The notes beneath the pieces are model-generated. The model was not told the origin of the DNA, did no database searches, and saw nothing but the letters and a program-made list of their open reading frames with translations. The translations under genes and the position numbers were made by a program. 64,000 nt of DNA, taken from Saccostrea cucullata (taxonomy: Eukaryota). Positions within the stretch are counted from its first letter, which is position 1; every line of letters begins with the position of its first letter. Location: positions 1 through 64,000 of the forward strand of contig NW_026928801.1 in NCBI RefSeq assembly GCF_032062105.1. Direction: 5' to 3'. Below, in pieces: positions 26,563-57,584 of this stretch.

Positions 26563-28740
26563 GTAAGTGTTACTTTCGTTTTTAATGCAAAAAGATAATT
26601 GCTTTGCGATGTTAAGGTAGAACCTATGTCGGAAAAGTCTTTTTCCCAAGATTTTCAAACTTTTCAAAATGATAAATTGGTACTTGCTTATCAATCAGTT
26701 AAAATATCATGATATATTTTCTTGTTTTTAAATCTAGTACAGCCCTTGAAACTTGGTATGGTATTTACATACTGAGACTACACATTTTAGGGGTATTTGT
26801 GAAGAAGAGAAAATAAAAAGTCACAAAAATACCTCTTCAACATCGTCGGTTATAGACTTTATTACCTGAACAATATTAAACACTAATTCTTAAGAATAAT
26901 ATCTTTTTTCTTCAATTGACAAAAAGATAAGTCCACATTTAAAAAAAAATAGGCAAATGAATTCTATTATTTTTTTAGTCAATTTTCCACCCTATACATT
27001 TGTTAATATTTTGTAGAAGTCTTTGTCACAATGTTTTCAATCTTTAATATGATGACGAACATACCCAAATGATTACAAAAAGTGATTAAAATATATACCT
27101 TTCCCCTCTAACCAATGAGAGAGAGGGTATTTACGGATGCTAATATTCTTGACCTTTTTGCACTTACACGGGATATAATTATAAAATGTCTGCTTGGGGT
27201 TACTTTCAGATTTAAAATGTTTACCAAAATTTGTTCTTTTTATTCAAAAATATCATATTTGATAAAAAAAAATTGTAATTAAACACACAAGAATATGAAT
27301 AAGTAACAAATTATTATGAAAAGGAATACACATCAATTCATGATAGATATATGATACAATGTATCACAAAAATGTACATAGAACGCACGATCTACAACAT
27401 GTAAACTTAAAATCGGATATTTGGTATATTTTGTATCATATCAAAATAATTTCAAAATTTCTACTGCTTTTAAATTTTGACTTTAAATTTTGACTTAAGT
27501 CTGTCCTCAGTTTATGGTTTTGGGGTCTGGTCTGTTGTGTATAAATTGCAGTGCTTCAGTTGATATTTCAGCATTTAACGTCAAGATTGTTTTAAAGTGT
27601 AAGGTAAAATGGTAATTTTGTTCAAATCAGAAACTTTTTCGTAGCTGGTTATACTCGCTACATCTTCCTATCTAGCACCAGGTTAGTCAAGAGATTTTTG
27701 GTCAAATTTTCCATAACTCTCATGCATGCATCTTATTATTTACTCATCTGTAGTTTTAATTCACGGATATACTGTTTATGAACATTATTAACAGTATACA
27801 CATTGAACATTGTCAAAGAATTTTAATTTTAGATTAAAGAAAAAAAGGAATTCGACGCACAAAAAAGGAAAATGAATATAAAGCAGAAAATTTCTGATTT
27901 CCTAATGATATTTCAAATTTAGTTAATTTAACAGATTTAAATCAGACATTTAAAATAACTCCAAGCTTTATATTTGGTGTGGCAGCATATCGTTGAATTA
28001 TTAAATGAGGGAATTATAACTCAGGTCTTCAAAATTTGCATACCTCATTGCAATTAATTAAGATAATAAGAGTATATCTAGTGTATAGAATAAGAATATA
28101 AGTATAAGAGAATAACAAGAGAACTATAATAATAATCTCTTAAGATAAATAAGAAATTAATTATATAAACTGTGAAATCAAAACAATTAGATCTACTATA
28201 ACCAGTAGACCCGAGTCTAACGGTACCTAACATAGGGGAAATGTGTTATAATACATTTATAGTTAATGTAACAACAGCTATTGGCTATGTATTATCAAAG
28301 TTTAAATGTACTTTATTCGAGTAATCTAATAGAAGTTCTACTAATCGACAATCGCATTCTTGGATGGTGAACCAGTTAACCAGATACTCGTTGACAACAC
28401 TAGAAAATATGTTACATTATTCTAACAAAGTCTTTTATTAGTAAATCAAAAAGCGGGTGGGGGGCAATTGAGGAAGGGAATTAGTTTTCTTCGTAATGAG
28501 AAAACAATTAAAATTAATATACTTGCGATAAGAATTGAATATAATTCTAATAAAAAACAAACAAACATGTCTTTATATAACCAACGGTTTTAGTAAGTAT
28601 ATAGTTGAAATCTTTCGCAAATTGTTATTCTGTCATCTTTGTTCGAAAAAGCAGACAAAAACGCCAAATAGTTTTAAACTTTTTGCATAAATATTTTTTT
28701 TTGTTTCTTTTTAGCTGGATCTTGATTAAAGGATATCAAA

Positions 28741-31337
28741 ATGGAGAGAAGCAATTTTATCTGGAAATGGATTTTTCTTTTCTTGATGCATTTTACACAA
28801 TCCTATGCCGAAAAGCCTTCTGTCACAGAAATGTATTCAAGACGAGAGGAATTGAATCTTTTGAAAAGCGTTCTTAAACGTTTTAGTGCTTTAGAGGAGC
28901 TTGAGAAAGAAAACATCAATAAAATGGAGAGCATCGAACGGAAACTTAATATAATTAGCGAAAAAATATCAGATTGTGAGGGTTATTTCATTAAAGTTTT
29001 TTTCTCTTGAATTTCCGTTTACATTTGTCATGCAAATAATCATGCGACAATTTTCTTTTTAAAAAAACTTTAGATTTTTTGTTTTCAAGAAAAAAATCCT
29101 TTGTTCAATAGACATCTAAAATTAGATGGAAAATAATCCTTGATTTTATATTCTTATCTAACCTCTTATGTTCCAGATTTCAACCTTTGCTCTGCTTCAT
29201 TATGTTTTGTTAAATGGACTTTTGAGCTTGATAACATTCATAATCTCCAAATATTTCATTCAAATTTTTGTATGCGTAAACAGTATGATGTCAATTTTTT
29301 TTAATATGAAAATGATTTTATTCTTATCAAGAAAAGATAAATCTGCTACAAAAGTATTTGCTATTTTAACTGTAGATCAACAAACACATGTCAATTTCTT
29401 TGCTTTTCCTCAGTTGGCAATGAATACAAAAAGTTGTTCCGGTTATATGTTAAATACATTAAATAATAAATAATAAATTGTTTGTTTGATTTAGTTTAAA
29501 AATCCACTCGGGTGCAAAATACTGTAATGTACTTATTTTTTATATCTGTCTTTCAATGAATAAAAGGATAGATTTTAGTCAGATGAATTCCTAATTAAAT
29601 CTGTAGTAAGAAGCTATGTTCTACAGATATTTTACAACGCGCAACTTGAAAAAATTAAGAAAGTCAAAAGTATTATGTGAAAGTTGCTCGGAAGATTTTT
29701 GCTATCGTTTTGTTCTTAGTTCTCCATAGTGTAGGTATATTATACACACGGAATACGACATTTATAAATGTTGCACTTTTATTTTGCATAAATAAGCTTA
29801 ATGTATACTGGAATATCACATTTTAGGTGTGGGTGGTATTTCTGTACACCCCTCCATCCCGACGTCACAAACCACAAGAAAATCTCCTAATACAACAGTA
29901 AAAATAAAATCAGCACATACAACTAGAACACAATCTGCTACTACAGAGACTACCTCTACGAAACCAACATCGTCTATTACTCAGCTACCAAGGTCAATAG
30001 GTAACTTTTTTCTGAATACTTTTTAAATTTTATCGCAGAACAGATTGATGTCCGTACTTTTTATTTCAATTTCAATATTTAAACCCATTGTAGGTAGTAG
30101 AGGCAGAGAATTTTTAATTCTTTTCATGAAAAATCACCCAGCTGCAAAAGGATCCCCTACAATCTACATTACAACAGGCGGTAATGCGTCTGTGAATATA
30201 TCAACCTCAAATGATCTTAATGCGTCCACTAAATTAGCAACTGACATTATACTGAATGTTTCCTATTATTCCAATATCACACTACCCTATGATCTAAGCT
30301 GTGATTATTTATCGATTGAATCCAAGGCCGTGCTTCTACAAACATCTGAACTATCCACCGTATCAATATTTGATAGTTTTCATAAATCTTCAAACGATGG
30401 AACGCTGATTATTTCAACAAACAGATTGTCAACAAGATATCTTGTGTCGTCAACGAATCCATACAAAAAAAGCGAAGGCTACTACAGTCAGTTTGCTGTT
30501 GCAGCCTTATATAAAGACACCAACGTTAATATTACATTTAAAATGAAAACCAGTACTTCAATATCTCTTCTTGGTGGAACATACGAAGACCAGGATGTAC
30601 TAACAACTACTTTAAATAAATATGAAACTTTACAAATTATGCATACTTCTGATCTTACTGGGACTTTTATTGAATCCACAAAACGAATAGCTGTGTTCTC
30701 AGGGAACCGATGTCAGCAGATGAAAGTCCTAGCATGTAGTCACATGGTTTCTCAGTTACCCCCGACTACCGAATTAGATAATCGATATATTATCCCCGCA
30801 TTCTACGGAAATTTAGGGACATTAATTCAAGTGATAAGTGAAAGTCAGAATTCTATTAAAATCAGCGAAGGTAGGAATTCATCAACCTTGCATATGAATG
30901 AAAAAGAATTCATGAACATTGAGGTGACATCAGGTGAAACTACTACTGTAGAGTCAGATAACCCTGTGCTAGTAACTGGTTTTGCAATGGGTTCCAGCAA
31001 TAAAGATCCTTATATGACAGTCATTCCCGGTGTCAATCAATATGTTGACTACTATAATGTAGTTGTACCAGACGGATATGCAAAGAACTATATCTGTGTG
31101 ATAATTCAACAAAAGTATACAGATGACCTTAAAATAAATGATACCTCAACTGATCATTATAAATCCGTGCAACAGAGCTCTGCTGCATTCGAGACCACTT
31201 ACAGCATTCGTATTTTTGAAGTAGACAGCGGACCCATTGTTATATCGACAACTAATAACTCAACATTTGGATTAATAGTCTACGGTCATCGGATGGATGA
31301 TGGATATGCATTCACCGGCAATTATGTTCTTTCATAA
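28741..31337 (+). CDS. Secreted IgGFc-binding (FCGBP N-terminal) domain protein, ~550 aa; exons 28741-28975 (or -28981), 29827-30000, 30094-31337
   Basis: All introns are GT-AG, phase 1, and join in frame. Exon A is a signal peptide (MERSNFIWKWIFLFLMHFTQSYA) plus a heptad-rich coiled coil. Exon B is a Thr/Ser-rich linker. Exon C carries IgGFc-binding motifs GREFLILFM, DLTGTFIES, IAVFSGNRC, HMVSQLPP, DPYMTVIP, FGLIVYG..DGYAF. AATAAA at 31444. Confidence 0.88.
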
Positions 31338-32393
31338 GGTTTTAAAGTGTGTAATTTACTCTATCCCTGACATATTAATTCAGCCCAATATAAATGTATC
31401 AAATCTAAAATGAATATTTCTTTTTATTTTACACAATTTGCAAAATAAAAATGGATAAAAATTCCTTCTGTTAAATACCAACAAACTTAATCAAAAGGAC
31501 TCCATATGTGACTAAAAAACATACTACATTTTGTTTTACATGTAAATAATAAAAGTATGGCTTCGGAACCGTAACCATCGTTAGAACTCATACAATGAAT
31601 ACAAAATTGAAATGCAATGAAAACAGTTTCAATCTTATTTGCCTAATTATTTTTATACATTTAGGTTGAAGTACAAATGTATTATTGTCCAAGCAAATGT
31701 TTTTAAAAAAGTGGAGGCCAGAATTACCGCATTGCAAAAAAATTCAACTCATTACCGCTTCATTTCTTTGAAATGTTGGGTGATTATTATATATCGCTAC
31801 ATTTTATAAATAAGACTATAGCCTATTACTAGTCATTACCGCTACATATTGAATCAGCCAGCAGTGTCACTGAATAAAAGTCCTATTCATTTTTTACAAT
31901 TTAAGGGGTTTTACAAGAGAGGAGTACATCAAGCATATGGTCTTCAAAATTCACTAATTATGTTATATATGTGTGTTTCATCCATTAAAATGATTGATCA
32001 GTCTTAAAACTTTCTAAAATGTTTAATTCCAAAAGATACATTTCATATTTAAAAAAATAAGACAAATCCTGCTTGAAGCCTTACTTTTATTTCCTCGTGG
32101 TGAGGAAGGGAAACAGGTGTTATGCATTTATTATTTTGTACGTTGAATACACCTGTACATACTTCGTATGGACCAACTGTTGTGTAACCTTTTTTGTAGA
32201 GATAATAAGTATTTAGCGGTAATGACAAAAAACTTAATTATAGTATATCCTTATTAAAGTAGCCTAAGCGCCTGTTTGCTTGCTATTCAGTTGTGACCAT
32301 TTCAATGTATTACCTTCTGTAAATGCATTTACTGTGTCCCTCTCAGTGTTAGATGAAAAACACGCTTTTGTACAAATATGATATTTTAAAGTA

Positions 32394-33136
32394 CTGTAAA
32401 ACGAGAAAATTTTGCACATACGTATTTAAGTGCAAACGTAAGTTGGAATGCATTGGTGCAAATACATTTAAGCGCTTGAACTTGTCATTAAAATGTATAA
32501 GTGTGATATTTTCTTTATCTATATCCATATTTGACTTTTCGGTTTTTCAAGCACGGAAACACAATAGCACCCCCGTATATAAGTAAACATTCGTCAACTT
32601 TACCGTGGTGTTGCAACCATATTGACGTGGAACAATATAAAAATTTATATCAATTTTATTTCAAATAAAAATAATGATGTATTTACGCATTTTATTTAAA
32701 GCAATGCATGCATCAAACGAAAAATTCACGGTTAAACGGTCATTATAATCAGGTAATATCTTCAAATTCAACCACCATGCTTGATTGCATTGTTTACCTC
32801 GAGGCGATAGATCATTTACACGGCAAGAAGCCAAACTTGGAAGGTGCTAATGATAAGTAACGGGTAATAACTACCGTATTTAAAAAAAAATACCGTGGTA
32901 ACAGTAATTTAATTAAATTGTAATTTGGCAGAACTTTCTCGATAGATCCTACCATGTACAGTGCTAATGTGTATATAAAATCCAACGACCTTTCGGCATA
33001 AGGTAATCGCGTGTTCCTATTTAGATTTACTTATAAGAAAGCTAGAAATCCCTTAGCGCACAATAAATTTTAGTGTCCAAGGGCTCTTGCACCAAAGGCG
33101 CTAAAATTAGTAGTGCGCCATATATACGTCTTACAG
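32394..33136. mobile_element. MITE with TA TSD
   Basis: TA|CTGTAAAACG.. and ..CGTCTTACAG|TA ends; imperfect internal symmetry. Confidence 0.55.
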
Positions 33137-33404
33137 TATCTGGCTTAGTGTCATTCTATTGCATTTTGAACAATTTCCATTAGGTCAAATCTGAAAGATA
33201 CGTTTTTCGTACTCATTGTTAGACCATAACTTAAACACTGAATTGTCTACAGTTTTCTCCGTTATTTTGCAATCATGAAAAGAAGCACATGGCGGATGTG
33301 ACCGGTCGTCTGGACATGCTCACTTTTCCATGGCACCTTATCCCACCTTTGATGTTTTTTAGGTCTGTGTTTACTTTGAGCTTGTGTATTGTTCAATGGA
33401 TATT

Positions 33405-33923
33405 TAGCTACAGAACTGTAGCTCTCTGCTTGAGAAAATTCGGACAGATAAAGCAGAGCTTCAGATCTAAGCGTTGTAAAAACTTTCGATTTACGCCGAC
33501 GATTTTTTGTCGCTTTTTTAGGTATTCTTTCATGTACTTTAAGCTTTTTGGCTTTTAGAATGCTTTGCTATATTAATTAATATATTTAACTCTTATATAT
33601 GATGCTTTATTTACCTTTTAACGGTCAGAAACAGTACGTACTGTATGTAGTTTTGTAATGTCGATTTACAAGCGTTCCCATTCGACGTCCTTAATCACAA
33701 ACAAACATTTATTACCGTTTTAAAGAGGTAAGTAAATTATTAGGAATAGAAGTTGATTGTATGATTAATTATTGTATATCATTGAAAAGGAGAGTATGAA
33801 ATACAAGACAAAATACCCGTAGTAAGCGACAAAAAATTGTCTGTATAAATGGTTTTTACAACGGTGTAGCTCTGCTTTATCTGTCCGAATTTTCTCAAAT
33901 AGAGAGCTACTGTTCTGCAGCTA
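33405..33923. mobile_element. MITE with 56-bp TIRs and 8-bp TSD (hAT-like)
   Basis: TIR TAGCT(A/G)CAGAAC(T/A)GTAGCTCTCT..TTGAGAAAATTCGGACAGATAAAGCAGAGCT at both ends. Flanks TGGATATT and TGGATTTT. It interrupts a Penelope-like 3' end fragment starting near 33285. Confidence 0.85.
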
Positions 33924-34954
33924 TGGATTTTTTAGCTTGAATGATGCTCGATATATTTCATTCAGTATAACGAAATGAAAACTTTTTTTTTTAATATTTT
34001 CATGACTATTAATTTTCAGGAGTTCAACTACATATCTAAATACCTATAATCAGAAAACTCGCATTTTCAGGAGTTCAACTACATATCTATACCTGTAATC
34101 AGAAAACTCATATTGTATCACTGATTAAGTCAATTCAAAATTTCTTGTATGTTTTCTTTGGCATAGTTTCAGATGAAAATTTTCAAATTTATTTTTTTCC
34201 TTTTTTAATGTTTGCAAATTGAAACAATTCTTCATTATATTGTACATGTAAATATATCCCTTAGTTGACCCTTTCGGTAATTTATAAAAAAAAAATCCTG
34301 TTGGGAGCCCCTTGGTACATTTGGTTCTCATGGTAACATAGCGGCCCAGTGAAGAGCCCCCCCCCCCCCCCCATTCTTATTTAAATAGTAAGGTTAAAGC
34401 GTGCTCTAGGTACATGTAGTACATGGGAAAACATCAGCCTATAGACGTGTTCGTATAGTGCTAACAGGGGGCCTGTCCATAGAAAATCACCAAGGTCTTG
34501 TGCATTGTTTTTTCATGCCTGTAAAGCCTCTTTACAGAATGTAAATAGATTTCGATAGCATGTGAGATGTAGGGTACTGAAATTACTTTATAAGAGAATA
34601 GTCATTGCCATGTTGTGGTGTTTGATAGAGAGTGAGTGAACTATTGCAGCCTGTACGACACATCTCTAAAACCAGTTTTGGGAGTTATATCATCTGACGG
34701 TGACCCACGTTTGATTTAAAGTCAATATATGAATAAAACATTTTGAAAGTTTGATAACTATTCATATTGTGAATTTTGAAATAATTATGAGTATTCAATT
34801 TTCATTGAAAGACATCTCAAAGTATCTTGGCGTCTGACCTTTGACTCTGGAGCCTGAAAGGAAATACCAAGTGTGCCACGCAGTCCTTTTAAGATAAACA
34901 TTGTTCCTTGCAGTCTTATTAAAAGAAACTGGACAAAGCCATCACAGGATGAAA

Positions 34955-35390
34955 AGCCAGGTTTCCCAAATTTGGAAACCCGATGGAAACATATGGGAAT
35001 CGTGACATCAGTAGTAGTTTCCATTTTATGGAAACCACATAGTGGTTTCCACATAGATTCCCGACATGGAAACAATCAACCTGTGGTTTCCCGTAAGTTT
35101 CCCAAGATAGGAAACCATGGAAACTTACCCTGGTGGTTTCCACATAGATTCCCGACATGGAAACAATCAACCTGTGCTTTCCCGTAAGTTTTCCAAGATA
35201 GGAAACCATGGAAACATGCCCCGGTGGTTTCCATGTAGATTCCCGATATGGAAACAACCAACCTGTGGTTTCCCGTAAGTTTCGCAAGATAGGAAACCAC
35301 GCAAACATGCCTCAGTGGTTTCCATACAGATTCCCGACATGGAAGCCACCAATGTGTAGTTTTCCGACGTTTCCCAGGCAGGGAAACTTT
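34955..35390. repeat. 91-bp tandem repeat (~4 units) rich in GGAAAC/GTTTCC
   Basis: TGGTTTCCA..AGATTCCCGA recurs at 35043, 35134, 35225 and 35316. This explains the overlapping spurious ORFs here. Confidence 0.9.
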
Positions 35391-37690
35391 GAAAGAATAT
35401 CTCAATACTAACCCTCTTACCTTTTATTTTACAAAAAGTTAAATATTTAATTATGTTACCATATTGTTACCAATTATAGAAATATTTCAAAAGTGTTTAC
35501 ATGCTGTATCAAAATAATTAACTTCAAACAGTTAAAATAACTAGATGTGTATTTCTGTGTGATTAATTTCATATTTCAGCAGCGTGAACGCAATTCAATT
35601 TTAATTTTATTTTATTTAACTGAATTTTATTAAATCTAATTTAATTTTGAATTTGATTTATCACTTAAGTTTTGGTAAACTCGTATAGAATGCGTGAAGT
35701 GGAATAGGAAAAAGTAAGTGCATGCAGTTATGTAGAAATCAATCATTTCCGATCCCACTTTCTTGAAACTGTCTATGATAAATGTTCCTTTGAAAAAATG
35801 GAAGAGCTGAGGAAGGGTACATTTAATGAAATTATTTACAGAAAAGATTTACTAAAAAGATCGATTAAAAAGTAAATAAAGAAATATGTCAAGTTACGAT
35901 TACTGATTACGGACAGGTGAGACGTTCCTCAATAAAATAATTAATTTTTTATCCAATATTTTGCAATTGACATTGAAGAATCATTCATCGAATTGGCTGG
36001 GGGCTGAGTATTATCATACTAGTATTTTACCACATAATCAGATTCACAAGACATCAAGGTACCTTACCAGGCATTTGTGTTAGATACCAGAGGTAATCCG
36101 TCAGGGAAAAAAATGCTTCAGTTGGTTTGTCAAAATGACATTTTTAGTGTTTTAAGTTTTTAAATACAAGTTTAGAAAGTGATAAAGATTTTGTTTTAAT
36201 ATTATGAATTAATATATTAATATAAACTGGTCAGATAAGAATCATTCATCGAATTGGCTGGGGGCTGAGTATTATCATACTAGTATTTTACTATTAATAG
36301 TGAATATTGTTTTTTTTTTTATCTAATAAATTATTATTTTTATTATTGGGGGTGGGTGGGTTGCTTTTCATTTTTTTTCCTTGAGAAGCCCCCCCCCCCC
36401 CCCAAAAAAAAAAACGCTTTTGAAAAAGTCACTATGGTCGGCCTGCGTAATTAGGGACACCTGTCCTCACGTGCCATTTCAGGTGGAGACACGTGCCGCG
36501 AAGACACCTGTCACTGTGTATTTTTGTATATTCTATGTGAATTGAGACGGTTTTGTACCTAAAGGGAACAATGGGTTGTTGTCGAGCATATACACACACA
36601 GTCTCCGACCGAAAATTCTTTTAAATTAATATGATGATTCGTGTTTCTTTTATCATTTAAAAGAATATATATTCCATAAATAAAGTTATACAAGAGAACA
36701 TATTTATAAAATAACCTACATTTAAGAAGTTCAATGAAAGAACAAACTATTTAGAATTTTTATTTCAATTTTCATTACTGATTTAAAATAAAACTATCCT
36801 CTTTAGAAATTAAATAATTTTCTATAGGTATTGAATAGATCTTAATTCTCGTCATGTATAATTATATTAAATCAGAATGACGTTAATAGATCAATGTGAA
36901 ATCAAAACTGTATTTAATATTGTTGATGGGTTTTTGTGTGAAATTTGTAATCTAACGTACTACAAAGACATTTATTAGATAAATGTTTATAATATAATTC
37001 ATCACATAAAACGTTTTTTTTTCCTTTTTTTTTGTTTAAATATGTACGCATATCCCCGTGTAGTAAACGCCTGTACTTTTCGCATGAAATTACAATGTAG
37101 GGTCCTAAATGCACATGCATTATATTTAACAAACTTTATAATTTTAAGCCATTTTTTTTTCTCCAAAGGCCATTGCTCTAGATAAAAAAAAGTCTATAAT
37201 ATTTTGCATGATTTTGTTTTCCTTAAGAACAATGGCTTTTAAAGTAGTGCATGCTAAGGCAATCTATTAAAAGAATTAATTGTATAATTAATTCAATGTA
37301 TAATTGTCACGATTGTATTTTTGTGCAGTTTTTGTTGATTTCATTCTATAAAGGTATGAAGTTTGTCAATACTTCAACAAACATTTCTTTATCTATGTTG
37401 TACACTTCTTTGTTTTTATTCGCCGACATGCTAAGTACTCTTTTTTAAAAAAAAAAAAAAACTTGCGTGACTAATAGACTCGATCTTCAGGCCTGTAGGA
37501 AGTAATTTCCGTTAGATTAATAAACTAACCGGGATTTTATTTTTACTAGCATACCTTACCAGATTTCTTAACGAAAAAAAAAACATTAAAAGAAATACAG
37601 GGCGGGACCAGTTAAAGCTGTATGCATAAGTACAATGGACACCGTAAATACAGAAATATTGAGTTCTTATGCAAATATTTCTTGAGAATA

Positions 37691-37895
37691 CTGTATACAG
37701 GGTTATTTTCGCCCCCTGTTATTTCGCCCTTTTGAACTTGTGAACAATTTTGCCCGTTTTGAATTCGCCCAGTCATAGTCCTGTTTAAGAAATTATGAAA
37801 TGTAATTTGAATTCGCCCCGTTTTAAATTCGCCCAATCAAGGAGAAGGCTAAAGGGGTGAAAATAAAACGGGGGCGCAAATTTCCCTGTAAACAG
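37691..37895. mobile_element. MITE with TA TSD, just upstream of the paralog's linker exon
   Basis: TA|CTGTATACAGGG.. and ..CCCTGTAAACAG|TA; internal ATTCGCCC repeats. Confidence 0.8.
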
Positions 37896-37965
37896 TAAGA
37901 CCAAAAAAGGTGAGAACATGTAGTATGATATAAATAATATATTATAGTACAAACATGATTATTAG

Positions 37966-39392
37966 GTGATGTTACGCCCTCCTCACTGACAACAATAAAG
38001 ACAACGACATCCAGTCCAGCTCCAGTACAAATATTTACAGGTACAGCGTCAACGTATCTTTTCATAAAGCAAGGAAATAAAACATTGGTGTTTATATATA
38101 GACCATTGGATTCTTGAATTGTAAAAATGATGTTTTCGAGTTACTTTAATTTATAATCCCTTACAGGAAACATTGGTAGAGAATTCCTTATTCCATTTAT
38201 GCGAAATCGCGCTGGATCCACTGAAAACCTTTCCATCTATATAAAATCTGAAAATGAAGCAGATGTCACAATAACAAGTTCTCCAAACCTAAATAAGAAT
38301 CCTAAATCATCTGTTGACAAGACATTTAATATAACGTCATAGTTTCTTGTCACTCTTCCTTTGGAATTGCAATGTGAATACATGAAGATTGAACATAAAG
38401 GAATTATCCTACACACCTCAGAGGTGTCCAATGTCACTATTTTTGACAGCCTAAATAATGAAACGAACGACGGAACAATTATAATACCAACAAATAAGCT
38501 TTCAACCAAATACCTTGTTTCTTCAACCGAGCCATTTGATACATCGTTGGATGTAAGTCGGTTGGCTATGTTACCTCTGTATGATGGAACCAGGATTAAG
38601 ATTACTCTTAAAATGAAAAAGACCTCGACAATAAATCTTTTGGGAAATACTTATGGAGACGGAGACACCTTCTTGCTCAATCTTGATAGATTTTAGACTT
38701 TCCAAATTGGTCATACCACGGATCTTTCTGGCACGTTCATCTCCGCTACAAAACTAATAGCTGTCTTTTCTGGAAATCCATGTCACAAATGGAACGACCT
38801 GTCAAATGACTGCAGTCATATGGTGACACAGTTGCCGCCTATTAACGAGTTAGGTAATAAATACGTCATCCCTCCATTTTATCACAATAAAAACACACTA
38901 ATTCAGGTCATGAGTGAAAATCAAACTTTTGTAAACTGTAGCATTGGACTAGATAATGATTTAAGGTGGCATTTAAAGGCAATGGAATGTAAGGCGATTA
39001 CATTTAGTAAAAGGGTAATTTTAGATTCAGAGAAACCTATTCTAGTTACTGGATTTGGCATGGGTTTCAATTCTAATAACTCGTACATGACAGTCATTCC
39101 CGGTGTTAATCAATATGTTAATTACTACAAGATCACGGTACCTGACGGATACATAGAAAACTCCCATCCAATCTGAATACAAACTGCAAATTAACGGTAG
39201 AAGAGCTTTTGATCATTAACCAATGTATCATGATTACGCAGGTTTGGATAAATTCTACCAACTTCTTATTTTCGAACTAAAACGGGTACATACGTTATAG
39301 CAACCACTGATCGTTCAAGATTTGGACTTTTTGTCTTTGGACATCGAACTCGTGACGGGTACGGATTCGCTGGCAATTTTGTTCTTCCTTGA
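37966..39392 (+). pseudogene. IgGFc-binding domain paralog, pseudogene (exons 37966-38040, 38167-39392)
   Basis: Same exon layout as the intact gene: phase-1 Thr-rich exon DVTPSSLTTIKTTTSS, then GNIGREFLIPFM...FGLFVFGHRTRDGYGFAGNFVLP*. In-frame TAG at 38340 and 38694, a deletion/frameshift near 39165 and a further TAA near 39217. Confidence 0.88.
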
Positions 39393-40075: not shown

Positions 40076-41139
40076 TATTCATTCTCTCAAAAAGTTAGAC
40101 ACAATGTTCAAGTTAATCAATTTTTTGTAATTTTTAACATTTTATGATACAATCTGTGTGAGCAACAAGAAGTTTATAAGGGACATCGACAAATTGTGTC
40201 TTTCATTGATATGAATGAAAATTGCATTATTCGCATTATTTGTGTGTTTTCTTACAAAAGTAACAAATATGGAATTGAAAAAATAAACAGGTTGAACCGA
40301 TTACCACAGAGAATTATCCGATGAGTTTGGGATTTTTTAACACATGAACACAGCTAATAATTTAGGGAATGTTGTACATTTTTGAATGAATCTGAAACAA
40401 AATTATTCCATAACTAGATATCACTAATTCAGAGAGATGCAGATGTATATAATAGTTTACTTTTGTTGTATCCCTTCTTTAAATAATATGAAGTGGTTAC
40501 TAAAAAATAAAAAAAAATCTTCATTTTTGCTAGAACTATTGAAGGCTAAATTCAAAAGAATGTCCATGAAAAATATCTAAAGCTAAGGGTAGTTTTTATA
40601 ATTATTGAGGATTAGTAGTGTCATCTCATGGGAAATATAAGTGGTCTTCAAGTATACTTTTAAATAACTTTGTATTTATAAATGTCTTCAATTTAGAAAT
40701 ATGAGAGAGAAATAACATTCTGCTAACGTTTTATATTCCATTGCAGAATTATTTTGAAATTAGTTTAAGGACAGAAGAGACGTTCCTAAATAATATATAA
40801 AATGTTTCAAGAGTTTGTCATTGAAGAATTGCTAATAAAACAAATTTACTCACAAAAAAATTGAGGTACCTAACCAGGGGTAGTTTTTCTTATGCATGAA
40901 TAATCCTTTGGAGAAGAAAAATAATTTTTCAATTTCAAGTGTTTGGATTTTTTAAAAAGACATTCAGAAACTGGTTTAGAAATCAGAATGTGATTAAAAT
41001 TTTGAAATTTTTTCATACATTGCGAAGATATGCAAAACAGATAATGGGGAACCTCTCGTTTGACTTTAAAAGTAAAGTTAGCCTAACACCATTTCCTAAA
41101 ATACAATTATATGAAGAATATTCTATTTTCTATTTAAAG

Positions 41140-41640
41140 TAAATGCTCCAAAGAAGACATCCTTTTGGAAATGAGGGGATCAAGTCAATTTATAACTAAT
41201 TAGAAGAATTTTTTCACACAATAATTAAATTTCCATGCAGTAGAAAGCTCCAAAAAAGACATGCATTTGCAAACGAGGGGATTATGTAAATTTAAAGCAA
41301 ATAAAAACATTTTTTTTTACACAATAATTATAATTATTTCCCAACAGTGTAATGCTCCAAAAAAAAGATATACTTTTGAAAATGAGGGGATCATTTTAAT
41401 TTAAAGCGTATTAGAAGAATTAAATCACACAATAATTAAATTTTCATACAGTAGGATACTTAAAAAAAAACATGATTTTGCAAATGAGGGGTAATGTCAA
41501 TTTATAGCGAATTAAAAACATTTTTCACACAATAATTATTTCAAAACAATAGAATACTCCAAAAAAGACGTACTTTTGCAAATGAGCAGATAATGTCAAT
41601 TGTAAGCGAATTAGAAGCACTTTATCAATCAATTATTACA
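41140..41640. repeat. Diverged ~105-bp tandem repeat, ~5 units
   Basis: Recurrent CTCCAAAAAAGAC..TTTGCAAATGAGGGGAT..TCACACAATAATT. Confidence 0.85.
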
Positions 41641-44929: not shown

Positions 44930-46444
44930 GGAACGACTTTACTTTACCGGTCCCCAAAATAAGGCGCCAAATTATATGAATGCCTTATTCGTTCCTCTTA
45001 TATAGTACGACGGCGTCAGCCGTCGTAAAAATGAAAAATAAGCGGTTTTGGGCATTTTTGACCCCAAAATCGTAATCTACGTCAAATTTTACAGTTAAAA
45101 ACTTCGTTTTAAACGAAAGTTTTTAACCTAAAAACAGAATGTTACATTAAAACACTTACGTTTACATAAAATAAAATCAGCAGTTCTTTAAAATGCAGTT
45201 GTCATCATTGCACGTGCGGAGTATGCACAGTAGATTGACAGGTGAATTTGAAAACAAATGCACGTTGCCATATACCATACAAATTGAAAGACCTCAGGGA
45301 AATGTTTGAAAATGTCAAAATAATTATTGACTGGTTAATTCAGTTAAATTTATTGATAAATCTGAAAGACTGTGTGTGCAAATTTTGTGACTTTGGACGT
45401 TTTGGATTACGAAGGGGCACTTCATTCAGTCGGGATTGCTACGTATGGAGATGCTCCAACAAAAAGTGTCATAAAAAGGTATCAATTCGTAAAGGGTCGT
45501 GGTTTGAAAATCACAATTTAACCTTAGAACAGATCCTGTACATTACATATTTCTGGGTTCACAAGTGTAACCAGGAATTTGTTATTCACGAACTGGAAAT
45601 TAGTGAGAGAACCATAGTGGACTGGTACAATTATTCCAGAGAGGTGTGCGACGTGATCTTACAAAAAAACGAAAATAATATCATTGGAGGCCCCGGGATT
45701 ATTGTTGAAATCGACGAAAGTAAATTCGGGAAAAGAAAATTCCACAAAGGTAGGCGTGTCGACGGGGTTTGGGTCTTTGGTGGAATTGAACGGGATTCTA
45801 AAAAGTGTTTTTTCACTACTGTTGAGGACAGAACAGCTGACACATTAGTTACCATAATAAAGCAGCACATCAAACCCGGAACTACAATCATCAGTGACTG
45901 TTGGAGGGCGTACAGTTCCCTAAACTCAGAAGGTTTCACTCACCTAACTGTCAACCACTCTATTAACGTCGTAGATCCCGACTCCGGTGCTCACACAAAT
46001 ACAATAGAATCCACCTGGAGAGCTCTCAAAAAATCCCTACCCAAAAACGGATCCCAGAAAACGTTATACGACAGTTATTTCTCCCAGTACTGCGTCAGAA
46101 AGTTGTACTTAAACGACTCCCCAGACCCTTTCCTTCGCTTTCTCAACCTCATATCGGAAGTCTACAAACCAAACAAAGCCGATTTCATCTCTGATACCAT
46201 TCCGCCTTTTAAAAAAACAAGAACGCCATTAGTCGACCTTAACCCAACCCTCAACAACAGCCTATATGATTTTCAGATTTAAGGTAAGATTTATTTGTTG
46301 TTGATGTACAGGAATCACTTTCGCCAACATTTTACAAGCGAAATCAAAATGGCCGCCGTAAACACAGGAACTTAGCAACGGGTGTGACGTAGAAGTTTTG
46401 CGCGTGAATTTAGATTCTGGGGACCGGTAAAGTAAAGTCTACCC
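44930..46444 (+). mobile_element. Complete Merlin (IS1016/IS1595-ISXO2-related) DNA transposon, 1515 bp
   Basis: 31-bp TIR GG(AAC/GTA)GACTTTACTTTACCGGTCCCCA(A/G)AAT. Perfect 8-bp TSD CATTTATT at 44922-44929 and 46445-46452. Confidence 0.95.
45302..46282 (+). CDS. Merlin/ISXO2-like DDE transposase (326 aa from first in-frame ATG; frame open from 45242)
   Basis: Uninterrupted ORF. Zn ribbon CKFC..WRCSNKKC. Catalytic motifs VEIDES, WVFGGIER, IISDCWRAY, HLTVNHS, HTNTIESTW. Confidence 0.93.
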   Translation: MFENVKIIIDWLIQLNLLINLKDCVCKFCDFGRFGLRRGTSFSRDCYVWRCSNKKCHKKVSIRKGSWFENHNLTLEQILYITYFWVHKCNQEFVIHELEISERTIVDWYNYSREVCDVILQKNENNIIGGPGIIVEIDESKFGKRKFHKGRRVDGVWVFGGIERDSKKCFFTTVEDRTADTLVTIIKQHIKPGTTIISDCWRAYSSLNSEGFTHLTVNHSINVVDPDSGAHTNTIESTWRALKKSLPKNGSQKTLYDSYFSQYCVRKLYLNDSPDPFLRFLNLISEVYKPNKADFISDTIPPFKKTRTPLVDLNPTLNNSLYDFQI

Positions 46445-46954: not shown

Positions 46955-47380
46955 TAGAAAGTCCAACTGCATTGAGGTCCAGAGTATCCATATTTGTATC
47001 CTTGAAGACAAGACCCGGACGTCTGATCACAATTTAAAAATTAACTTATAAAACAACTTATAAAAGTAGAATAATAAATAACTTCCATCTCCACCACAAC
47101 CATAAGGACATGTGTACAAACAGGAAGAACCTGTGTAGCCAACCTGGCATCCCTGAAGACAAGAACCTGTATCTTGATCACAACTACCATCTCCAGCACA
47201 GTTGCAGGGACATGATATATAACATGAATCCCCTTTGTACCCAGGGGTGCACCCTTGTGGACAAGAACCAGTAATTTGATCACAACTCCTATCACCACCA
47301 CAGTTTAAGGGACTATGGGAATCACACGTAAATCCCTTGTACCCCGTCTTACACCCTTCCAGACAATACGACGTTAACTT
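46955..47380 (-). pseudogene. Small Cys-rich EGF-like repeat gene, copy 2 (disrupted)
   Basis: Colinear and highly similar to 16962-17337. A 49-bp AT-rich insertion at 47033-47081 disrupts the frame. No signal-peptide exon found upstream in the window. The 3' flank 46630-46950 is homologous to 16240-16960 minus the SINE. Confidence 0.8.
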
Positions 47381-48009
47381 GTGTTAAAAGCAATATGGAT
47401 AATAAAAGTTATTTAATTATGTAAAGCTATATTTAAATATTTACATTTGGAAATGTTTTTCTTTATAAAAGCAATGCGTATCTATAACTGTATGAATAAA
47501 GGTATGGTGTCAAGAGGTCATAGATGTGCGTATGGATATACATTCGACGTAATTTCTCAGTGACGTCATAAATGAGTAAGGCTCGTTTAATGAATAATAA
47601 ACATGCCGTTGGGTTTGAAAAATAATGCACTTCACACGTTAAAAGTCACATTCAGGCAAAGAGCCAAAGCGCATTTGATAGTCACTTTCTAAACAGAGTT
47701 TAGCAAATCGAGCACACTCGTGTTATGTACACTGTAAACAGGACTCGAGTTCTGTTAATGTTTTTATTTGGAATTCACTGGGTGCGTTCAATCGTCACAG
47801 TCAGCTTACCACAAATGCAGGGACTGACAATATATTGTGTGTTTGTTTTGCTGTCGAACGTGTCTGCACTGAATTTTCTGGATTAAAGTTTTGATATTTT
47901 TCATTTATACAGAACAAGATTGCCACTTTTCCTAAGGATTAAGAATAAAATTAAATTTGTGAAAGTGCAAGGATATGTCAATCAAATTCGCGGAAAAATT
48001 GGAAATTTC

Positions 48010-48278: not shown

Positions 48279-48795
48279 GTGTTTAATTTCTATTAATCAA
48301 GCGATCGTTCTGTGCGGCGGCAGTTAAATTCTGTAAGATCCATTGTTTTGATCTGTCCATCTGTGCAACTTGCCGTACTAGCAGACTTATTGACTTCTAA
48401 AACGATCGTTTTCTCTCAATCCGAATTTCCTCAATTCCTTCGTTTATGACATCTCAGAGACTTTATCAGCTTCACAAAAGGAAAGGAGAAGGGAGCAGGT
48501 TTTAATCAGACTGTCAGCCTCAACCTCGATTGCTTCGATTTCTGCCTTGGCATTGAACAGTGTCAAGTGTCTTGTTTGGATAGGGGCTGAGGGGTGCCTC
48601 ACTATTACTATTATTATAAAAAAAATAAAAGGAAGATTGTTCTTGATTGTTTTCTTCATATAAGCATATTATATCATTGACTGGAACTCTCGTAAACTCG
48701 CTTTTCTTGTGGAGGTACCAGGATGGCTCAATTTGTTATCCTCTTTTATTATATAATTCCTTTTAAATTTGTCTACCAGAGCGGCGGCCATGGTT

Positions 48796-49419
48796 GGGGA
48801 GTGGAGATGTTACCCAACCTGTATAAAATGCAACCAAGACGGTCAAGATTCAGCTTTCCACTCTTTATTAAAGTAAATAATCTATTTCTAATATTTATAA
48901 TTTCAATAAATAATTTTACAAAATATACTAAACCTTATTAAAAATATAACTACTTATAATATAAAAAAAAACTTAACTTGTAAATAAAATAAGCCATGTG
49001 AAAATTTAAATAATGTTAACCAAAACGCGCGCAAGTCTACAAAATAATCTCACCTGTATAAATGCAACCAGAAAGAGACAAAATTCAGCTTTCCACTGCC
49101 GAATTGTCCCACTAAGCTACATTTATACTCCCGTACATGTCCTACATATTTTAATGTCTCTTTAATTACTTTTATCCTTAGAGCTCGCGTTCGTTATCTT
49201 TGTCCGACTAAATGATTTATCTCTGTGAACCATCCAGATTAAAGTTAAGCTCCCATCGGTCTGCATCTTTAATTTCTTTTAACCAAATCCATCTTTCTAT
49301 ATACCAGTAAGTAGATTTATTTTATCCTCTGCGCTCGTATCTGCTATCTCTCTAAGCCGAATAGTGCAAATCCATGAAATACATTAGAATTTATTTTTAC
49401 TGCAAATGTTGTTATGATA
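48796..49419 (-). repeat. 3' LTR (high-identity part)
   Basis: About 97% identical by manual comparison to 56961-57584; adjacent to the PPT. Confidence 0.9.
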
Positions 49420-51199
49420 AATTCCCCCCACTAACAAAAATCTTGTCCTCAAGATTTGTTTAATATGGTTTTCAAAGACTTTTACCCAATTTCGCTCATT
49501 TTCAGATGGCTTAAACACACTAAAATATTCAATATATAATTAAATATGCACAAGAAGACTATGTCTAATACACAATAAGATAATATATATGAAACCAAAA
49601 AAAATCACAATCTACAAAATTTAGTTGTACATCAAGATCGAATTATGCACAGCTGCCTAGGCATTTTACCTGGGTGGAGTTGGCAACACTCCTTAAAATA
49701 GGTAACAATAATCTACATCGAAAAGACATCCGCTAAACAATCATAAAAAAACACTCGAAATTTCAATAAGTACACTTAAGCTTGTACCCTATTTGCTTAA
49801 CCCAGAAAAAGAAATAGCAACAAGAATAACCTTCTGCGACTTTTTCACAAATGAGTTGTCATTGTTCTGCAAGATATACACACTCTTTCAAAAAGAATAT
49901 TATTACTGTACATATACATGTAAAATCAATACTCAATCCACGGCACTAAATTGTGTTAATAAAAAGAAATTAAAATCGTCAAACATCTTTGTTAAACCCT
50001 TATGTGTTCAAGAACTCATTAAACATAAAACATTTTTCAACAGTTAAAAAAAATTGTAGTCATCATTGAAAAAAAACATTATCTAATTAATAAAAATATA
50101 CATAATCAAATATATTGGGCATAACGGAGAGAAAAAATAAAACGGCTCTTGACAAAAATCTGGCATGATTTCACACAATTTGTTTTTCTTATATCCAAAT
50201 TTTATTCTATAACGAAGAAAATATCTTCGATAAATTTGTCTTAGGGAAATTTTCAGAATCCCTTTTTTTTCATTATCATATATGGGTTTGTCAGCAGAGG
50301 AATTTTCTATTTAATTGACTGTTATTTACAAAATGTTATTTGTAGCATAACATGAGCGTCCCACCCATGTGATGAGTTTAAAATTTAAATGTCTGTGTAC
50401 AATTGGTTGTTAAAGGTAAAGTTAGTAGTATAATTGTGCTAACACTACTGTAATTATTCCATGCACCAAGAGTCAATCAGACTCTATGCTTGTAAATATT
50501 AAATCTGACGTTTGACCGAAGGTAGTTGTTACTTTATTGACAACAAACACATACAAAACACCAATAGAATTTAATGTATATATACGGTGCAACCGTGAAA
50601 AAAGCTTTTCTTGTCCATTCAGTTTTTATTTTTCTTAATTATCCGATCATTGACATGTATAACAAAAATAAATTCACTCACTCCAGAATTTAATGGTTTC
50701 TTAGTTTATGAAACCCGAACATATAATTTTATGTTAATATATTTGTATAACGTGTTTTCTTTTATTTGATTCGCATCAGTTAGTTCTCGTTATTATAGTT
50801 TCTCTCTAAGTCCGATCTTGAAAGGAGGAATGATTCGCGCAGTACATTAGAAAGGATACAGAATTTCGCTTAGAACCTCTATATAATAGATGACATGAAA
50901 GAAATGGAAAGAGTTGGGCGTCCTGATAGAAGATCTAAATGAATGATATGCATGAAACATGTGAAAGATATGAAAAAGGTATTGGACGCCCCGAAAGAAG
51001 AAAGAAATGTATGACATATATAGAAGTCAAAGACAAAATTCGATCTATTCCATTACGATACCCTTCCTTTCTTTAATTGTCTTCTTAAGACATTTTCCGT
51101 TGTCTTCAATTATTCTTCGATTTTGACCAATTGGATTTTAACGATCAGTTAACCTTTTTTTATCTGTACTGACCTTTTTATTTATCTTATAATAATATT

Positions 51200-54100
51200 T
51201 TAGAATTTCCTTTTTCTTTGTTTCGTTGACGAATGATACAATTGTTTTAACAACTGTAATATATTATTTGAAGGTTCCCAAGTAGGCTGTGACCCATCTG
51301 CCCATTTCACCAAATAATATCGTTTATTACTCATCCATTTCGACAATTTTTCTACCGTGTGCCATTCATCTTTATTCTGTTTCTTTTGGCTTTGCGCGTT
51401 TTCTCTATTAACATTTGCATTGTTTTGTCTTTGGGGATTTTGCGCTTCCGGGGGCGGACGATAATCCCTTGGGTCTTTGTACAATCTTAATCTATTTGCA
51501 TGCACTGATGCTTTTAATTCAACATGGTCGTTTGACCTCCTTAAACTAAACGAATGGTTCGGATTTACCTTAATTATATAATAAGGACCTTCCCATTTAG
51601 GCTCTAATTTATGTTTTCTTCCTGGAGTTCTTTTCATAACTTTTAATAAAACTTCATCTCGTATTTTGAATTGCGGTTCTTTTGTTTTCTGATCATATCA
51701 TTTCCTTTTTTTCTCTTGAACTTTACTCACATTTTTCTTTGCAAGTTCCTGTACTATTTTCACTTTGTTTAATAAAGCATCAAAATACTCTTTTGGTGCT
51801 TTTTCCAAAACTTCCTTGGGGATCAATGAAATATCAATGGGTAATGTCATTTCTTTCCCAAACAACATGTAATAAGGGGAGTACCCTGTCGACTGGGGTG
51901 ATGGACTCATTCTGAAGGCCATCATTACACTGGGTAAAATATCTTCCCATGCATCCTGATTTTTCTGGCAATACGCTCTGAGTGACTGAGCTAGTGTAGA
52001 ATTGATTCATTCGCATGCCACATTACTCTGTGGATGATATGAACTAGTGACGTGCCGTGTCACCTGAAATATTTTACACAAAGCTTGGACTACTTTTGAC
52101 ATAAAATTTTGTCCTCTATCGCTGACCAACGTACGTGGAGCCCCGTATCTTGTAAATATTTCCTTGTACAATAAATGTGCAACCTCTGTTGCCTCTTGTG
52201 TTTTCATAGGTAGTGCCTCTGACCAATGTGATAATGAATCTGTAACCAATAAAATATATTGGTACCCTTGCTTTGTTTTTGGCAAACCTGCCAATATATC
52301 CATATGCCATCGGGCAAATGTCCCTTCTACCGGTAATGGGTGTAACGGTGCGGCCCTACTTGCTGTATCCCGTTTTACCCTTTGACAAACATCACATGAC
52401 GTAACATAGTCATACACATTTTGATACATCCCTGGCCAAAAACACTTTTGCTTTATTGCCAAATAAGTTCGTTATACCCCCAAGTGACATCCACCTGCTA
52501 ATGAATCATGATAAGATTTCAGAACATCATTTATGAAAGACTGGGGACATGCCAATTGTTTAATCATTGCTTCTGGGTTTGATTTATTCTTGGACCTTGG
52601 TTGAAAAATATGAAACAAGATGCCTTGTACCAATTCATATTGATTTGCTTCATATGGGATTGCCTTCGCTCTTTTCGGTTCATTCGGAAGCGTGCCATCT
52701 TGTAAATATTTGTACATATGTTTAAAATACGGACAATTTTGTTGTTCCTGTTTAATTTGTTCATTCTTATTTCCTTCATTGTTATTTTGTTTTTCCCTTT
52801 CTGCTAAAGTGTCATTCATTTCCAAGATATGGTGTTGATTGTCATTTGGAAAAATAAATGTAACCTCTGTTATTTCATGTGGAATTATATCATCATCATC
52901 TTGTTCAGGAGTTTTAGCTTGTTTTGAATAAGGCCTTCTAGACAGTGCATCGCAATTTTGATGTTTTATTCCTGGTCGATGTTTTACTTCAAAGGAATAT
53001 TCTTGTAATTTTAATGTCCATCTTATAAGTCTCGCATTTGTGTGTTTGATAGTCTTTAACCAAGTTAATGCCTTATGGTCAGTGTAGACCAGAAATTTAT
53101 TGTTTAACAAATATACACGAATATGCGCTATTGCTGACACCAACGCGAGCATTTCTTGTTCAGTCACGGAATATGCTTTTTCATACTTATTTAGAGCTCT
53201 TCCTCCGTATGCAATTGCATGTTCTTTATTATCATCTCCCATTTGAGATAAAACATATCCGATAGCCATTCCTGACGCGTCACATGACAATATAAATGGT
53301 TTTTGAAAATCTGGGTAGGCTAAAACTGGTGTTGTTGTTAAGGCTCGTTTAAGTGTATCAAAAGCAATTTGACAATCTTTGGTCCATTTGAAAGGAGTAT
53401 CTTTTGTTAATAACCTATTTAAAGGCAATGCAATTTTTGAGTACCCTTTTACAAATTTTCGATAATAATTCGCTTATCCGAGAAAACTGCGAATATCATA
53501 ATATCATGCTGATTTTGTGGCAATGGAAATGACTGAACCGCGTCAACTTTTGAAGGGTCTACTTTTATTCCCTCAGTAGATATTATATGACCCAGATATG
53601 TAACCTCCGGTTTTGCTAATGAACACTTTTTCGGTTTTAAAGTCAGGTTTGCTTGTCGTAAACGATCAAAAATCAAATTAAGATGTTTCAAATGATTTTC
53701 AAAATTATCTGACCAAACAATGATATCATCGATGTAAACCAAACAATGTTTCCACGTAAGACCTTTAAGAACCATATTCATGAGCATTTGAAAAGTTGCT
53801 GGGGCATTGACAAGACCAAACGGCATCCTTTTGAATTGGTATAAATTATCATGCGTAATGAACGCAGTTTTGTGTTTTGTATTTTCATCTAAAGCGACTT
53901 GCCAATAGCCAGACGCCAAGTCCAAAGTAGAAAATATTTTTGCTTTGTTTTGTCCAATAGCATCAAAAACGTCTTCCAAGCGCACTGATGGAAACGTTTG
54001 AACTGGTGTTATTGCGTTTAATTTTCGATAATCAATTGCAAATCTGTATTCATTATTTAGTTTTTTCACTAACACGACTGGTGACGCAAAAGAAGACGTA

Positions 54101-56124: not shown

Positions 56125-56662
56125 ATTTGAAAAAAAATTATGTCCTACCTGTCCATTTTTTTCTTCAGTCTTTTGAATAAAAATATCTGTCCTTGAATGA
56201 CGAGTTTCCTGGCTGTGTCGGACATTTCCTCTTACCAGTACTGCGCTATAGCAATTGTCCAAAACGACTTATAGTTTGTGTACCCAACTACAAGAAGACG
56301 GAATGACACTGGACATCGTACGATTAGCACTAAAGTTTGTAGTTCTCACAGCCCATCGAGTCGGTCGAAGAGCGCTCGAATTCAGTTTTTTTTTTAAGAT
56401 CAACAGCTAGCCACTGTCGCATTGCACGTCAGGCTTCCCCTGGAAGTAACACAAGTTCCTCTGCTCACCAAAGGATATGTGATTTTTACGCGTAGTCCTA
56501 ATGAAGCAGTTAACTGCTTGCATATTTGTGTACGTACTCCTAGGAATCACTGCAACTATTTTGTTACTTTATAAGTCCCAAATGACACTGGATGAAATTT
56601 AACTGTGGTTATTAACAGCTAGTCCCGTTTTTTTCTCCATGTAATGTATTTTCTCCACCACT

Positions 56663-57584
56663 TTTCGTAACAATTCAAATGTTCTTGTGGGGAAATTTTT
56701 GTTTTTCGGATTTCTGTTAGTTTTGTGAATTTGTTTTTGGGTTTTCTATATTATGCGTCTGGTTACTGGATCTGATTGTAAACTCCCGGGATCGTTCGCT
56801 TTTCCGCATGTGAGAGGTTTGAAGGGCCAGGGAAAACCTTTCTCCAATTCCCTGGTCCTGACCAGACAAAGTTTATCCGATTCGCAATGTCCCAGTTTAC
56901 ATTTTATCTCCCTCGGATTTATTTATTCTCTTCCTGCATGTTCAGCGCATTACAGGTTATGGGGAGTGGCGATCTTACCCAACCTGTATAAAATGCTACC
57001 AAGACGGTCAAGATTCAGCTTTCCACTCTTTATTATAGTAAACAATCTATTTCTAATATTTATAATTTCAATAAATAATTTTACAAAATATACTAAACTT
57101 TATTAGAAATATAACTACTTATAATATAAAAAAAACTTAACTTGTAAATAAAATAAGCCATGTGAAAATTTAAATAATGTTAACCAAAACCCGCGCAAGT
57201 CTACAAAATAATCTCACCTGTATAAATGCAACCAGAAAGAGACAAAATTCAGCTTTCCACTGCCGAATTGTCCTACTAAGCTACATTTATACTCCCGTAC
57301 ATGTCCTGCATATTTTAATGTTTCTTTAATTACTTTTATCCTTAGAGCTCGCGTTCGTTATCTTTGTCCGACTAAATGATTTATCTCTGGGAACCATCCA
57401 GATTAAAGTTAAGCTCCCATCGGTCTGCATCTTTAATTTCTTTTAACCAAATCCATCTTTTCATATACCAGTAAGTAGATTTATTGTATCCTCTGCGCTC
57501 GTATCTGCTATCTCTCTAAGCCGAATAGTGCAAATCCATAAAATATATTAGAATTTTATTTTTACTGCAAATGTTGTTATGATA
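56663..57584 (-). repeat. 5' LTR (extent inferred from terminal inverted motif and PBS)
   Basis: Minus strand starts TATCATAACAA and ends TTGTTACGAAA (9/11 inverted match). It is followed by AG and then the PBS TGGTGGAGAA. Confidence 0.7.

Follow-up and report, generated by a model that had tools for sequence, protein, structure and literature searches.

The FCGBP_N domain (PF17517, IgGFc_binding) is typically found at the N-terminus of its proteins, a placement suggested to be functionally important (PMC4948705, Lang et al. 2016); it occurs without VWD domains in most invertebrates and without any other domain in some amphioxus proteins, and bacterial FCGBP_N proteins are described as secreted and linked to gliding taxa (PMC4948705). 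At least 25 entries from Crassostrea gigas are listed in Fig. S5 of the same paper. Human FCGBP is a core mucus protein; the function of its N1 domain is described as unclear, and reported work on the purified protein contradicts IgG binding (PMC11796319). Coiled-coil and triple-C1q classes are known in oysters (PMC6835236), and changes under stress or metamorphosis are described for an 'IgGFc-binding protein' whose domain content is not given (PMC5457604, PMC7525975). The stretch analyzed here, the first 64,000 nucleotides of contig NW_026928801.1 of the rock oyster Saccostrea cucullata (the window), contains a real, intact and already annotated gene of the PF17517 family, referred to below as the oyster gene, in which the domain forms a C-terminal head behind a probable signal peptide, a predicted coiled-coil stalk and a Thr/Ser-rich linker. 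This order had been proposed in an earlier note made from the DNA letters alone, and is upheld by hydropathy, AlphaFold2 and Pfam. To our knowledge, IgG is absent from molluscs.

The gene lies on the + strand and is composed of three exons. Exon A (28715..28975) holds a short 5' untranslated region, the start codon at 28741, and the codons of the signal peptide and stalk, with a phase-1 donor at 28976 (alternatively 28982); exon B (29827..30000) is a phase 1-1 exon of 58 codons that encodes the basic linker; exon C (30094..31337) encodes the whole head, residues 138-550, and ends in the stop codon TAA, 3' of which the first AATAAA (31444..31449) is a candidate poly(A) signal by motif. The coding segments (28741-28975, 29827-30000 and 30094-31337) are separated by two GT-AG introns, each in phase 1, and the spliced frame of 550 amino acids (aa) has a single terminal stop, which bears out the three phase-1 exons of the earlier note. 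The product is letter for letter that of the NCBI/UniRef entry P0001, an 'IgGFc-binding protein-like' protein of S. cucullata, which is an independent but automated gene model and not a transcript. Use of the alternative donor (exon end 28981, six bases on) gives 552 aa, the NCBI model using 28975, and retention of intron 2 leads to a TAA at 30024. Because the ATG is preceded, in the letters read directly, by a TGA in the same frame (28723-28725) and by a strong acceptor (AG at 28713-28714), an untranslated upstream exon is probable. The gene model is considered almost certainly correct.

Exon C matches PF17517 over positions 1-297 of 297 with 161.7 bits against a cut-off of 25.6 (E 3.1e-47), confirming the IgGFc-binding domain predicted for the spliced exons. 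Exons A, B and C have no VWD, C8, TIL or C1q (PF00386) match at E<=0.1, no VWD-like open frame of at least 45 aa is seen by eye at 31338-38100, and the NCBI model ends at the stop directly after the head. The absence of VWD/C8/TIL repeats thus stands; its presentation as a notable feature does not, as this is the usual state in invertebrates (PMC4948705), and the unusual point is that the head is C-terminal, contrary to the N-terminal tendency of FCGBP_N. The protein resembles other members of the family in its full-length match, its probable secretion and its lack of VWD, and differs from them in carrying the head behind a coil and a Thr/Ser linker. It has the N1 domain in common with vertebrate FCGBP; the latter contains many VWD-C8-TIL units, whereas the oyster protein of ~550 aa has none, and oligomerizes through disulfides of its C-terminal VWD domains, whereas the oyster protein is modeled to use an N-terminal coiled coil. 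Gel-forming mucins combine VWD-C8-TIL with long proline-, threonine- and serine-rich (PTS) regions, unlike the oyster protein, which has a 57-aa Thr/Ser segment only and no VWD.

The probable signal peptide covers residues 1-23 (28741..28809, + strand), as indicated by hydropathy, a modeled helix at residues 4-21 and the aligned hydrophobic N-termini of relatives; its hydrophobic core spans approximately residues 6-19, no transmembrane-like 19-mer is found by hydropathy elsewhere in the protein, and cleavage would fall after Ala23. Judged from sequence features of this kind, the protein is very probably secreted. The mucin-like linker, first described as ~58 aa of Thr/Ser-rich sequence, corresponds to exon B, which has a Ser+Thr content of 44% and an isoelectric point of 11.7; on both strands of the window it is the sole segment to pass a filter for an acceptor, phase 1-1, an open frame, at least 45 aa and at least 35% Ser+Thr. 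Residues 82-133 are predicted by AlphaFold2 to be disordered, with a predicted local distance difference test (pLDDT) score <50, and the linker is probably O-glycosylated.

The full-length AlphaFold2 model, built on an 83-row alignment, places a second helix at residues 28-80 (28822..28975, + strand) between the signal helix and the disordered linker, followed by a confident all-β head. This helix would form the coiled-coil stalk, with core positions at residues 41, 44, 48, 51, 55, 58, 62, 65, 69, 72 and 76, and ends in Cys79; the ~50-aa coiled coil claimed previously is upheld as a helix of 53 aa, but its heptad core is shorter at ~39 aa (residues 41-79). Three copies of residues 24-84, modeled without an alignment, give a parallel in-register bundle with a heptad-spaced interface, a score of 0.58 against 0.00 for the best control, contact agreement between runs >=82% and pLDDT >=75. 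The mark used for such multimer models was passed by 21/30 solved pairs and 0/23 single chains from microbes, and by 17/29 (animals 7/16) against 0/30 single chains from eukaryotes. The oligomer foreseen from the layout is thus predicted as a parallel trimer, and oligomerization through the stalk is considered likely. Cys79 is itself a core position, a Cys is present at or near the same place in most related stalks, and an inter-chain disulfide may form there.

The bivalve sC1q-like type II and smultiC1q proteins (PMC6835236) are alike in having a signal peptide, a coiled coil, a C-terminal globular head and tandem duplication; the type II proteins bear a C1q head, whereas the oyster protein has none and instead features a 413-aa multi-sandwich head and an inserted mucin-like linker exon. 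Its layout is that of a type II C1q protein, yet it is neither a C1q protein nor a vertebrate-type FCGBP. When a profile built from eight FCGBP_N-protein stalks was searched against 1.84 billion representatives, 17 matches were obtained: five FCGBP_N proteins already retrieved, a new and divergent one (P0153), five isolated fragments of exon size, P0155, P0160, and four proteins (P0157, P0161, P0162 and P0163) discarded as unrelated and repeat-driven. P0160, from S. cucullata, consists of a signal and coiled-coil stalk followed by three C1q domains; a profile widened to include it returned four proteins from 7,999 scored candidates, one being P0165, likewise a C1q protein of S. cucullata. Stalk identity is 39/77 positions between P0160 and P0153 (z 15.9 by heptad-preserving shuffles) and 21/76 between P0153 and the oyster gene (z 10.0); the direct match between the oyster gene and P0165 is moderate (20/75, z 5-6). 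The stalk of the oyster gene probably shares ancestry with these C1q stalks, judging from two paralogues in one species, and the analogy once drawn to stalked bivalve recognition proteins gains from both the trimer model and this homologous signal-plus-coil on two triple-C1q proteins.

It is also conceivable that the stalk is an ordinary short dimerization or chaperone helix, the C1q likeness being superficial and due to chimeric models or chance resemblance between coils. Models in tandem clusters can be chimeric (P0052), the two C1q proteins are close paralogues from a single species, and the coil of a second oyster subfamily has no detectable relation to the stalk of the oyster gene (z <=3.5). 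This explanation is nonetheless considered improbable: the identity between P0160 and P0153 spans the signal and the pre-coil segment and survives heptad-preserving shuffles, and P0160 and P0165 lie on separate contigs with an identical stalk-plus-C1q layout. As a separate observation, the stalk of P0155 (S. cucullata LOC134249572) is identical to that of the oyster gene at 30/64 positions, with a far longer coil and an endonuclease-like fragment after it; P0155 is probably a mis-joined model.

Searches with the head, which favor the oyster gene's own clade, retrieved 118 similarly long proteins and 34 that are longer. Fifty of these are oyster-named: 31 have a whole C-terminal head preceded by 40 or more other residues, 10 models consist of the head only and nine are partial, and a C-terminal extension of more than 20 residues is present in none of the 41 whole heads. 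C. gigas FCGBP_N proteins with TSP_1 or fibrinogen domains exist (PMC4948705) and are not in the retrieved set. The N-terminal partners of the head, with labels partly read by eye, include the signal-plus-coil stalk, a second unrelated coil, a Ly6/uPAR-like pair, EGF arrays, a coil with CUB, and a membrane-anchor-like segment, and a Thr/Ser linker mostly lies between module and head; the coiled-coil recognition family first envisaged therefore keeps its stalked layout but is not a pure coiled-coil family, its N-terminal modules being variable. P0069, P0094 and P0096 (Crassostrea), read by eye, have an internal hydrophobic segment and then a Thr/Ser stalk ahead of the head; it is possible that these would be type II membrane proteins, cell-surface forms of the head.

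A quick tree of 42 heads separates 34 C-terminal oyster heads from scallop, tubeworm and bacterial forms in which the domain is N-terminal, with a Shimodaira-Hasegawa-like approximate likelihood ratio test (SH-aLRT) value of 99; P0153 sits on a long branch and its place is unsure. The six heads that carry the oyster gene's stalk are interleaved with Ly6/uPAR-type heads in a 15-row tree, and a single clade is rejected by the approximately unbiased test (p-AU 1.2e-7) for this group, which was chosen after the larger tree had been seen. The interleaving is explained by exon shuffling via phase-1 introns; gene conversion between neighbors or mis-joined models could contribute.

A second, broken member is found on the + strand 6.6 kb downstream. 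Its linker exon (37966..38040) is phase 1-1 and Thr/Ser-rich, with 25 codons and AG/GT ends, and matches the linker of P0026; its head exon (38167..39392) is a pseudogene that retains pieces of PF17517 and 45% identity to the intact head, with eight internal stops (38340, 38694 and six more at 39174-39249). The pseudogene is nearer to the Ly6/uPAR-type P0026 than to the adjoining intact gene, and neither a second stalk exon nor a Ly6/uPAR-like exon for it was found in the window. Three more members (P0007, P0051 and P0119) apparently lie on the 360,708-base contig of P0001, which is consistent with a tandem cluster. A tandem array with a period of 91 bases (35042-35376) lies between gene and pseudogene.

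The head is modeled with a mean pLDDT of 95.6 and a predicted template modeling score of 0.94, and contains three repeats supported by profile comparison and a fourth unit without such support, all on the + strand. Repeat 1 (residues 138-235; 30096..30389) lies outside the Pfam model, along with which it is conserved, and matches repeat 2 with a profile probability of 68% (E 4.7e-5; score 29 against a shuffled maximum of 21); repeat 2 (residues 240-349; 30402..30731), which holds the best-conserved residues and Cys343, matches repeat 3 (residues 355-443; 30747..31013) with a probability of 94.7% (E 6.3e-8; score 44 against a shuffled maximum of 14). Unit 4 (residues 448-550; 31026..31334) is β-rich and has the linker motif pattern and strand count in common with the repeats; its profile matches to them are not usefully above shuffled controls, and it is at most a divergent fourth repeat. 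PF17517 leaves out the first repeat (~100 residues), though it can be aligned in oyster and bacterial members. No PDB sequence matches the head at E<=1, and none matches a 79-row head profile at E<=10; the ESM Atlas returns only PF17517 clusters for the head and, for repeat 3 with PF17517 excluded, only unnamed matches under 0.9. Foldseek matches of both models are low-TM multi-sandwich only and were not used. A ring-closing Cys206-Cys471 disulfide was also considered; both residues are present in 28 of 79 rows, the first only in 5, the second only in 0 and neither in 46, and as this co-occurrence tracks one clade it was not counted as evidence.

Repeat 3 is predicted to be an eight-stranded β-sandwich resembling TM1070 (PDB 1nc7) and ASRT (PDB 2ii7) of the ASRAH superfamily, which is described as prokaryotic (PMC2739507). 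Identity between ASRAH proteins and the oyster head repeat is ~10%, no profile-level link was found, and the ASRT family is not among the best 25 of 53 Pfam families listed for the head profile. The oyster head lacks the ASRT-like family's His/Cys pocket motif; immediately ahead of strand 1 of repeat 3, 15/15 distant members have a Trp and the oyster protein has Leu364, and the alignment has no conserved Asn after strand 2 of that repeat. Set against the tetramer, dyad and tetrad pattern of ASRAH, three repeats of the head are supported by profile comparison and the fourth is not. The hypothesis that FCGBP_N unites a tetrad of ASRAH-type sugar-binding sandwiches in one chain, and was made the head of a stalked, multivalent lectin-like class by exon shuffling with C1q genes, is considered doubtful.

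The head could instead be a catalytic or metal/small-molecule binding module, as conservation of polar residues extends from oysters to bacteria, with Asp323 in 64/64 rows and in 15/15 distant members, His353 in 61/64 and 11/15, Gln357 in 64/64 and 12/15, and Asp441 in 55/64 and 15/15. This is regarded as very improbable, since no enzyme family above threshold matched the head and most of the conserved positions lie in the repeat linkers and are Gly, Pro or aromatic residues, as would be expected of a structural role. A glycan or glycoprotein ligand is the preferred reading of the head and is given an even chance.

An FCGBP-domain protein with a C1q-like stalk suggests a sticky, sugar-binding role. 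In the favored reading, the gene is an intact member of an oyster tandem family in which one phase-1 exon supplies the whole FCGBP_N domain as a C-terminal head and the modules ahead of it are interchangeable. It is proposed that the secreted chains would zip into a trimer via the short parallel coiled coil, which a Cys79 disulfide could lock, and the flexible, probably O-glycosylated tether would let the three heads extend, each being a cluster of three or four small β-sandwiches that most likely binds carbohydrate or glycoprotein. The oligomer would then bind repeated glycans with avidity, cross-linking mucus or agglutinating microbes or particles on mucosal surfaces. The overall reading of a secreted, stalked trimer with glycan-binding heads, belonging to a tandem family, is held with evenly balanced confidence; a role mainly in microbe recognition is tentative and falls somewhat below that. 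The exons, the nature and sequence of the domains, the make-up of the family, the relatedness of the stalks and the repeats within the head are shown by the data; helix, trimer and fold likeness are model predictions. The mucosal or hemolymph recognition put forward in the earlier note is a candidate function.

Several points weigh against this reading. Three copies is the sole copy number modeled for the stalk, in a job that differs from the calibration set, and the pass may reflect likeness to many solved coiled coils, because these are frequent among solved structures. The link to C1q stalks runs via P0153 and the profile, because the direct match of the oyster gene's stalk to P0160 is weak (14/65, z 2.7), and three of the four unrelated, repeat-driven proteins among the 17 stalk matches have E-values like that of P0160. 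The architectures all come from automated gene models, of which P0052 is a visible fusion of two neighbors, so that mis-joined models or gene conversion may account for some of the apparent swaps. The resemblance to TM1070 lies in structure, not in sequence, and concerns one repeat; sugar binding in the ASRAH family is itself a prediction (PMC2739507). Variation among 15 close relatives is evenly spread over the four units of the head (entropy 1.12-1.26), with no hypervariable patch that would hint at a diversifying binding site.

The chief competing explanation is a structural component of mucus or of a larval adhesive, in which the head binds mucins, VWD/EGF matrix proteins or surfaces, the oligomer cross-links gel or glue, and immunity is secondary. 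EKC34632 of C. gigas, an FCGBP_N protein (Fig. S5, PMC4948705), is pediveliger-specific (PMC6337334); it is the sole oyster FCGBP_N protein for which expression data were found, and its restriction to settling larvae is as compatible with mucus or adhesion as with immunity. This rival is further favored by the place of human FCGBP in mucus together with its contradicted IgG binding (PMC11796319), by the secretion of bacterial FCGBP_N proteins and their ties to gliding taxa (PMC4948705), and by oyster fibrillin-like EGF arrays that bear the head. However, EKC34632 could not be placed in the oyster gene's clade, several 'IgGFc-binding' proteins of adhesion papers are named via VWD or zonadhesin likeness and not FCGBP_N (PMC7333891, PMC12993968), and tandem duplication, the adjoining pseudogene and the sharing of the C1q stalk fit a fast-turnover recognition family. 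The mucus or glue protein is considered possible but rather unlikely; it overlaps with the recognition reading, from which it differs mainly in ligand and site.

Elsewhere in the window, two copies of a Cys-rich exon on the - strand (16944-17342 and 47027-47383) are 77% alike over ~560 bases and encode 34-aa EGF-like repeats (102-base period) with weak Pfam EGF matches, the 47-kb copy being interrupted; they presumably resemble genes of the MEGF10 or scavenger-receptor-F type. A Ty3/gypsy-type long terminal repeat retroelement (~48795-57584, - strand) contains protease, reverse transcriptase, RNase H, integrase and a weak chromodomain, is split by stops, and is bordered by direct repeats of 626 bases (48795-49419 and 56960-57584) with 97% identity. 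An open 347-aa frame (45239-46282, + strand) contains an ISXO2-like (IS1595-family) DDE transposase domain (E 1.7e-20). Further tandem arrays are found at 41138-41601 (period 102), 59825-60637 (period 93) and 61436-61821 (period 51); the inverted-repeat segments at 14621-14751, 20860-21596 and 33405-33923 are typical of non-autonomous DNA elements, and recent dispersed duplicates of 240-270 bases (48010-48278/63423-63692 and 63099-63339/63760-64000) have 97-99% identity.

The oyster expansion of FCGBP_N is already tabulated, and the drawings of Fig. S5 may already show C-terminal placement (PMC4948705); no description of the layout, the C1q stalk sharing or an FCGBP-ASRAH link was found in the literature within reach, which left out most subscription papers and bioRxiv supplements. 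Distinctive here are the C-terminal placement of the domain, the N-terminal modules that can be exchanged, a stalk in common with C1q proteins and a head folded from repeats. Should no ligand be found, the protein would stay one more annotated case of a known domain family, if unusually laid out. A free, stand-alone head at the C-terminus argues against a need for N-terminal placement and provides a natural construct for binding and structure studies, and the repeat structure together with the TM1070 likeness leads to the specific hypothesis of glycan binding at repeat interfaces. A stalk common to C1q and FCGBP_N heads would be a concrete module swap among the expanding secreted families of bivalves; if the ASRAH tetrad is true, the natural stand-alone head would be a direct route to the ligand of FCGBP_N in human gut mucus and gliding bacteria.
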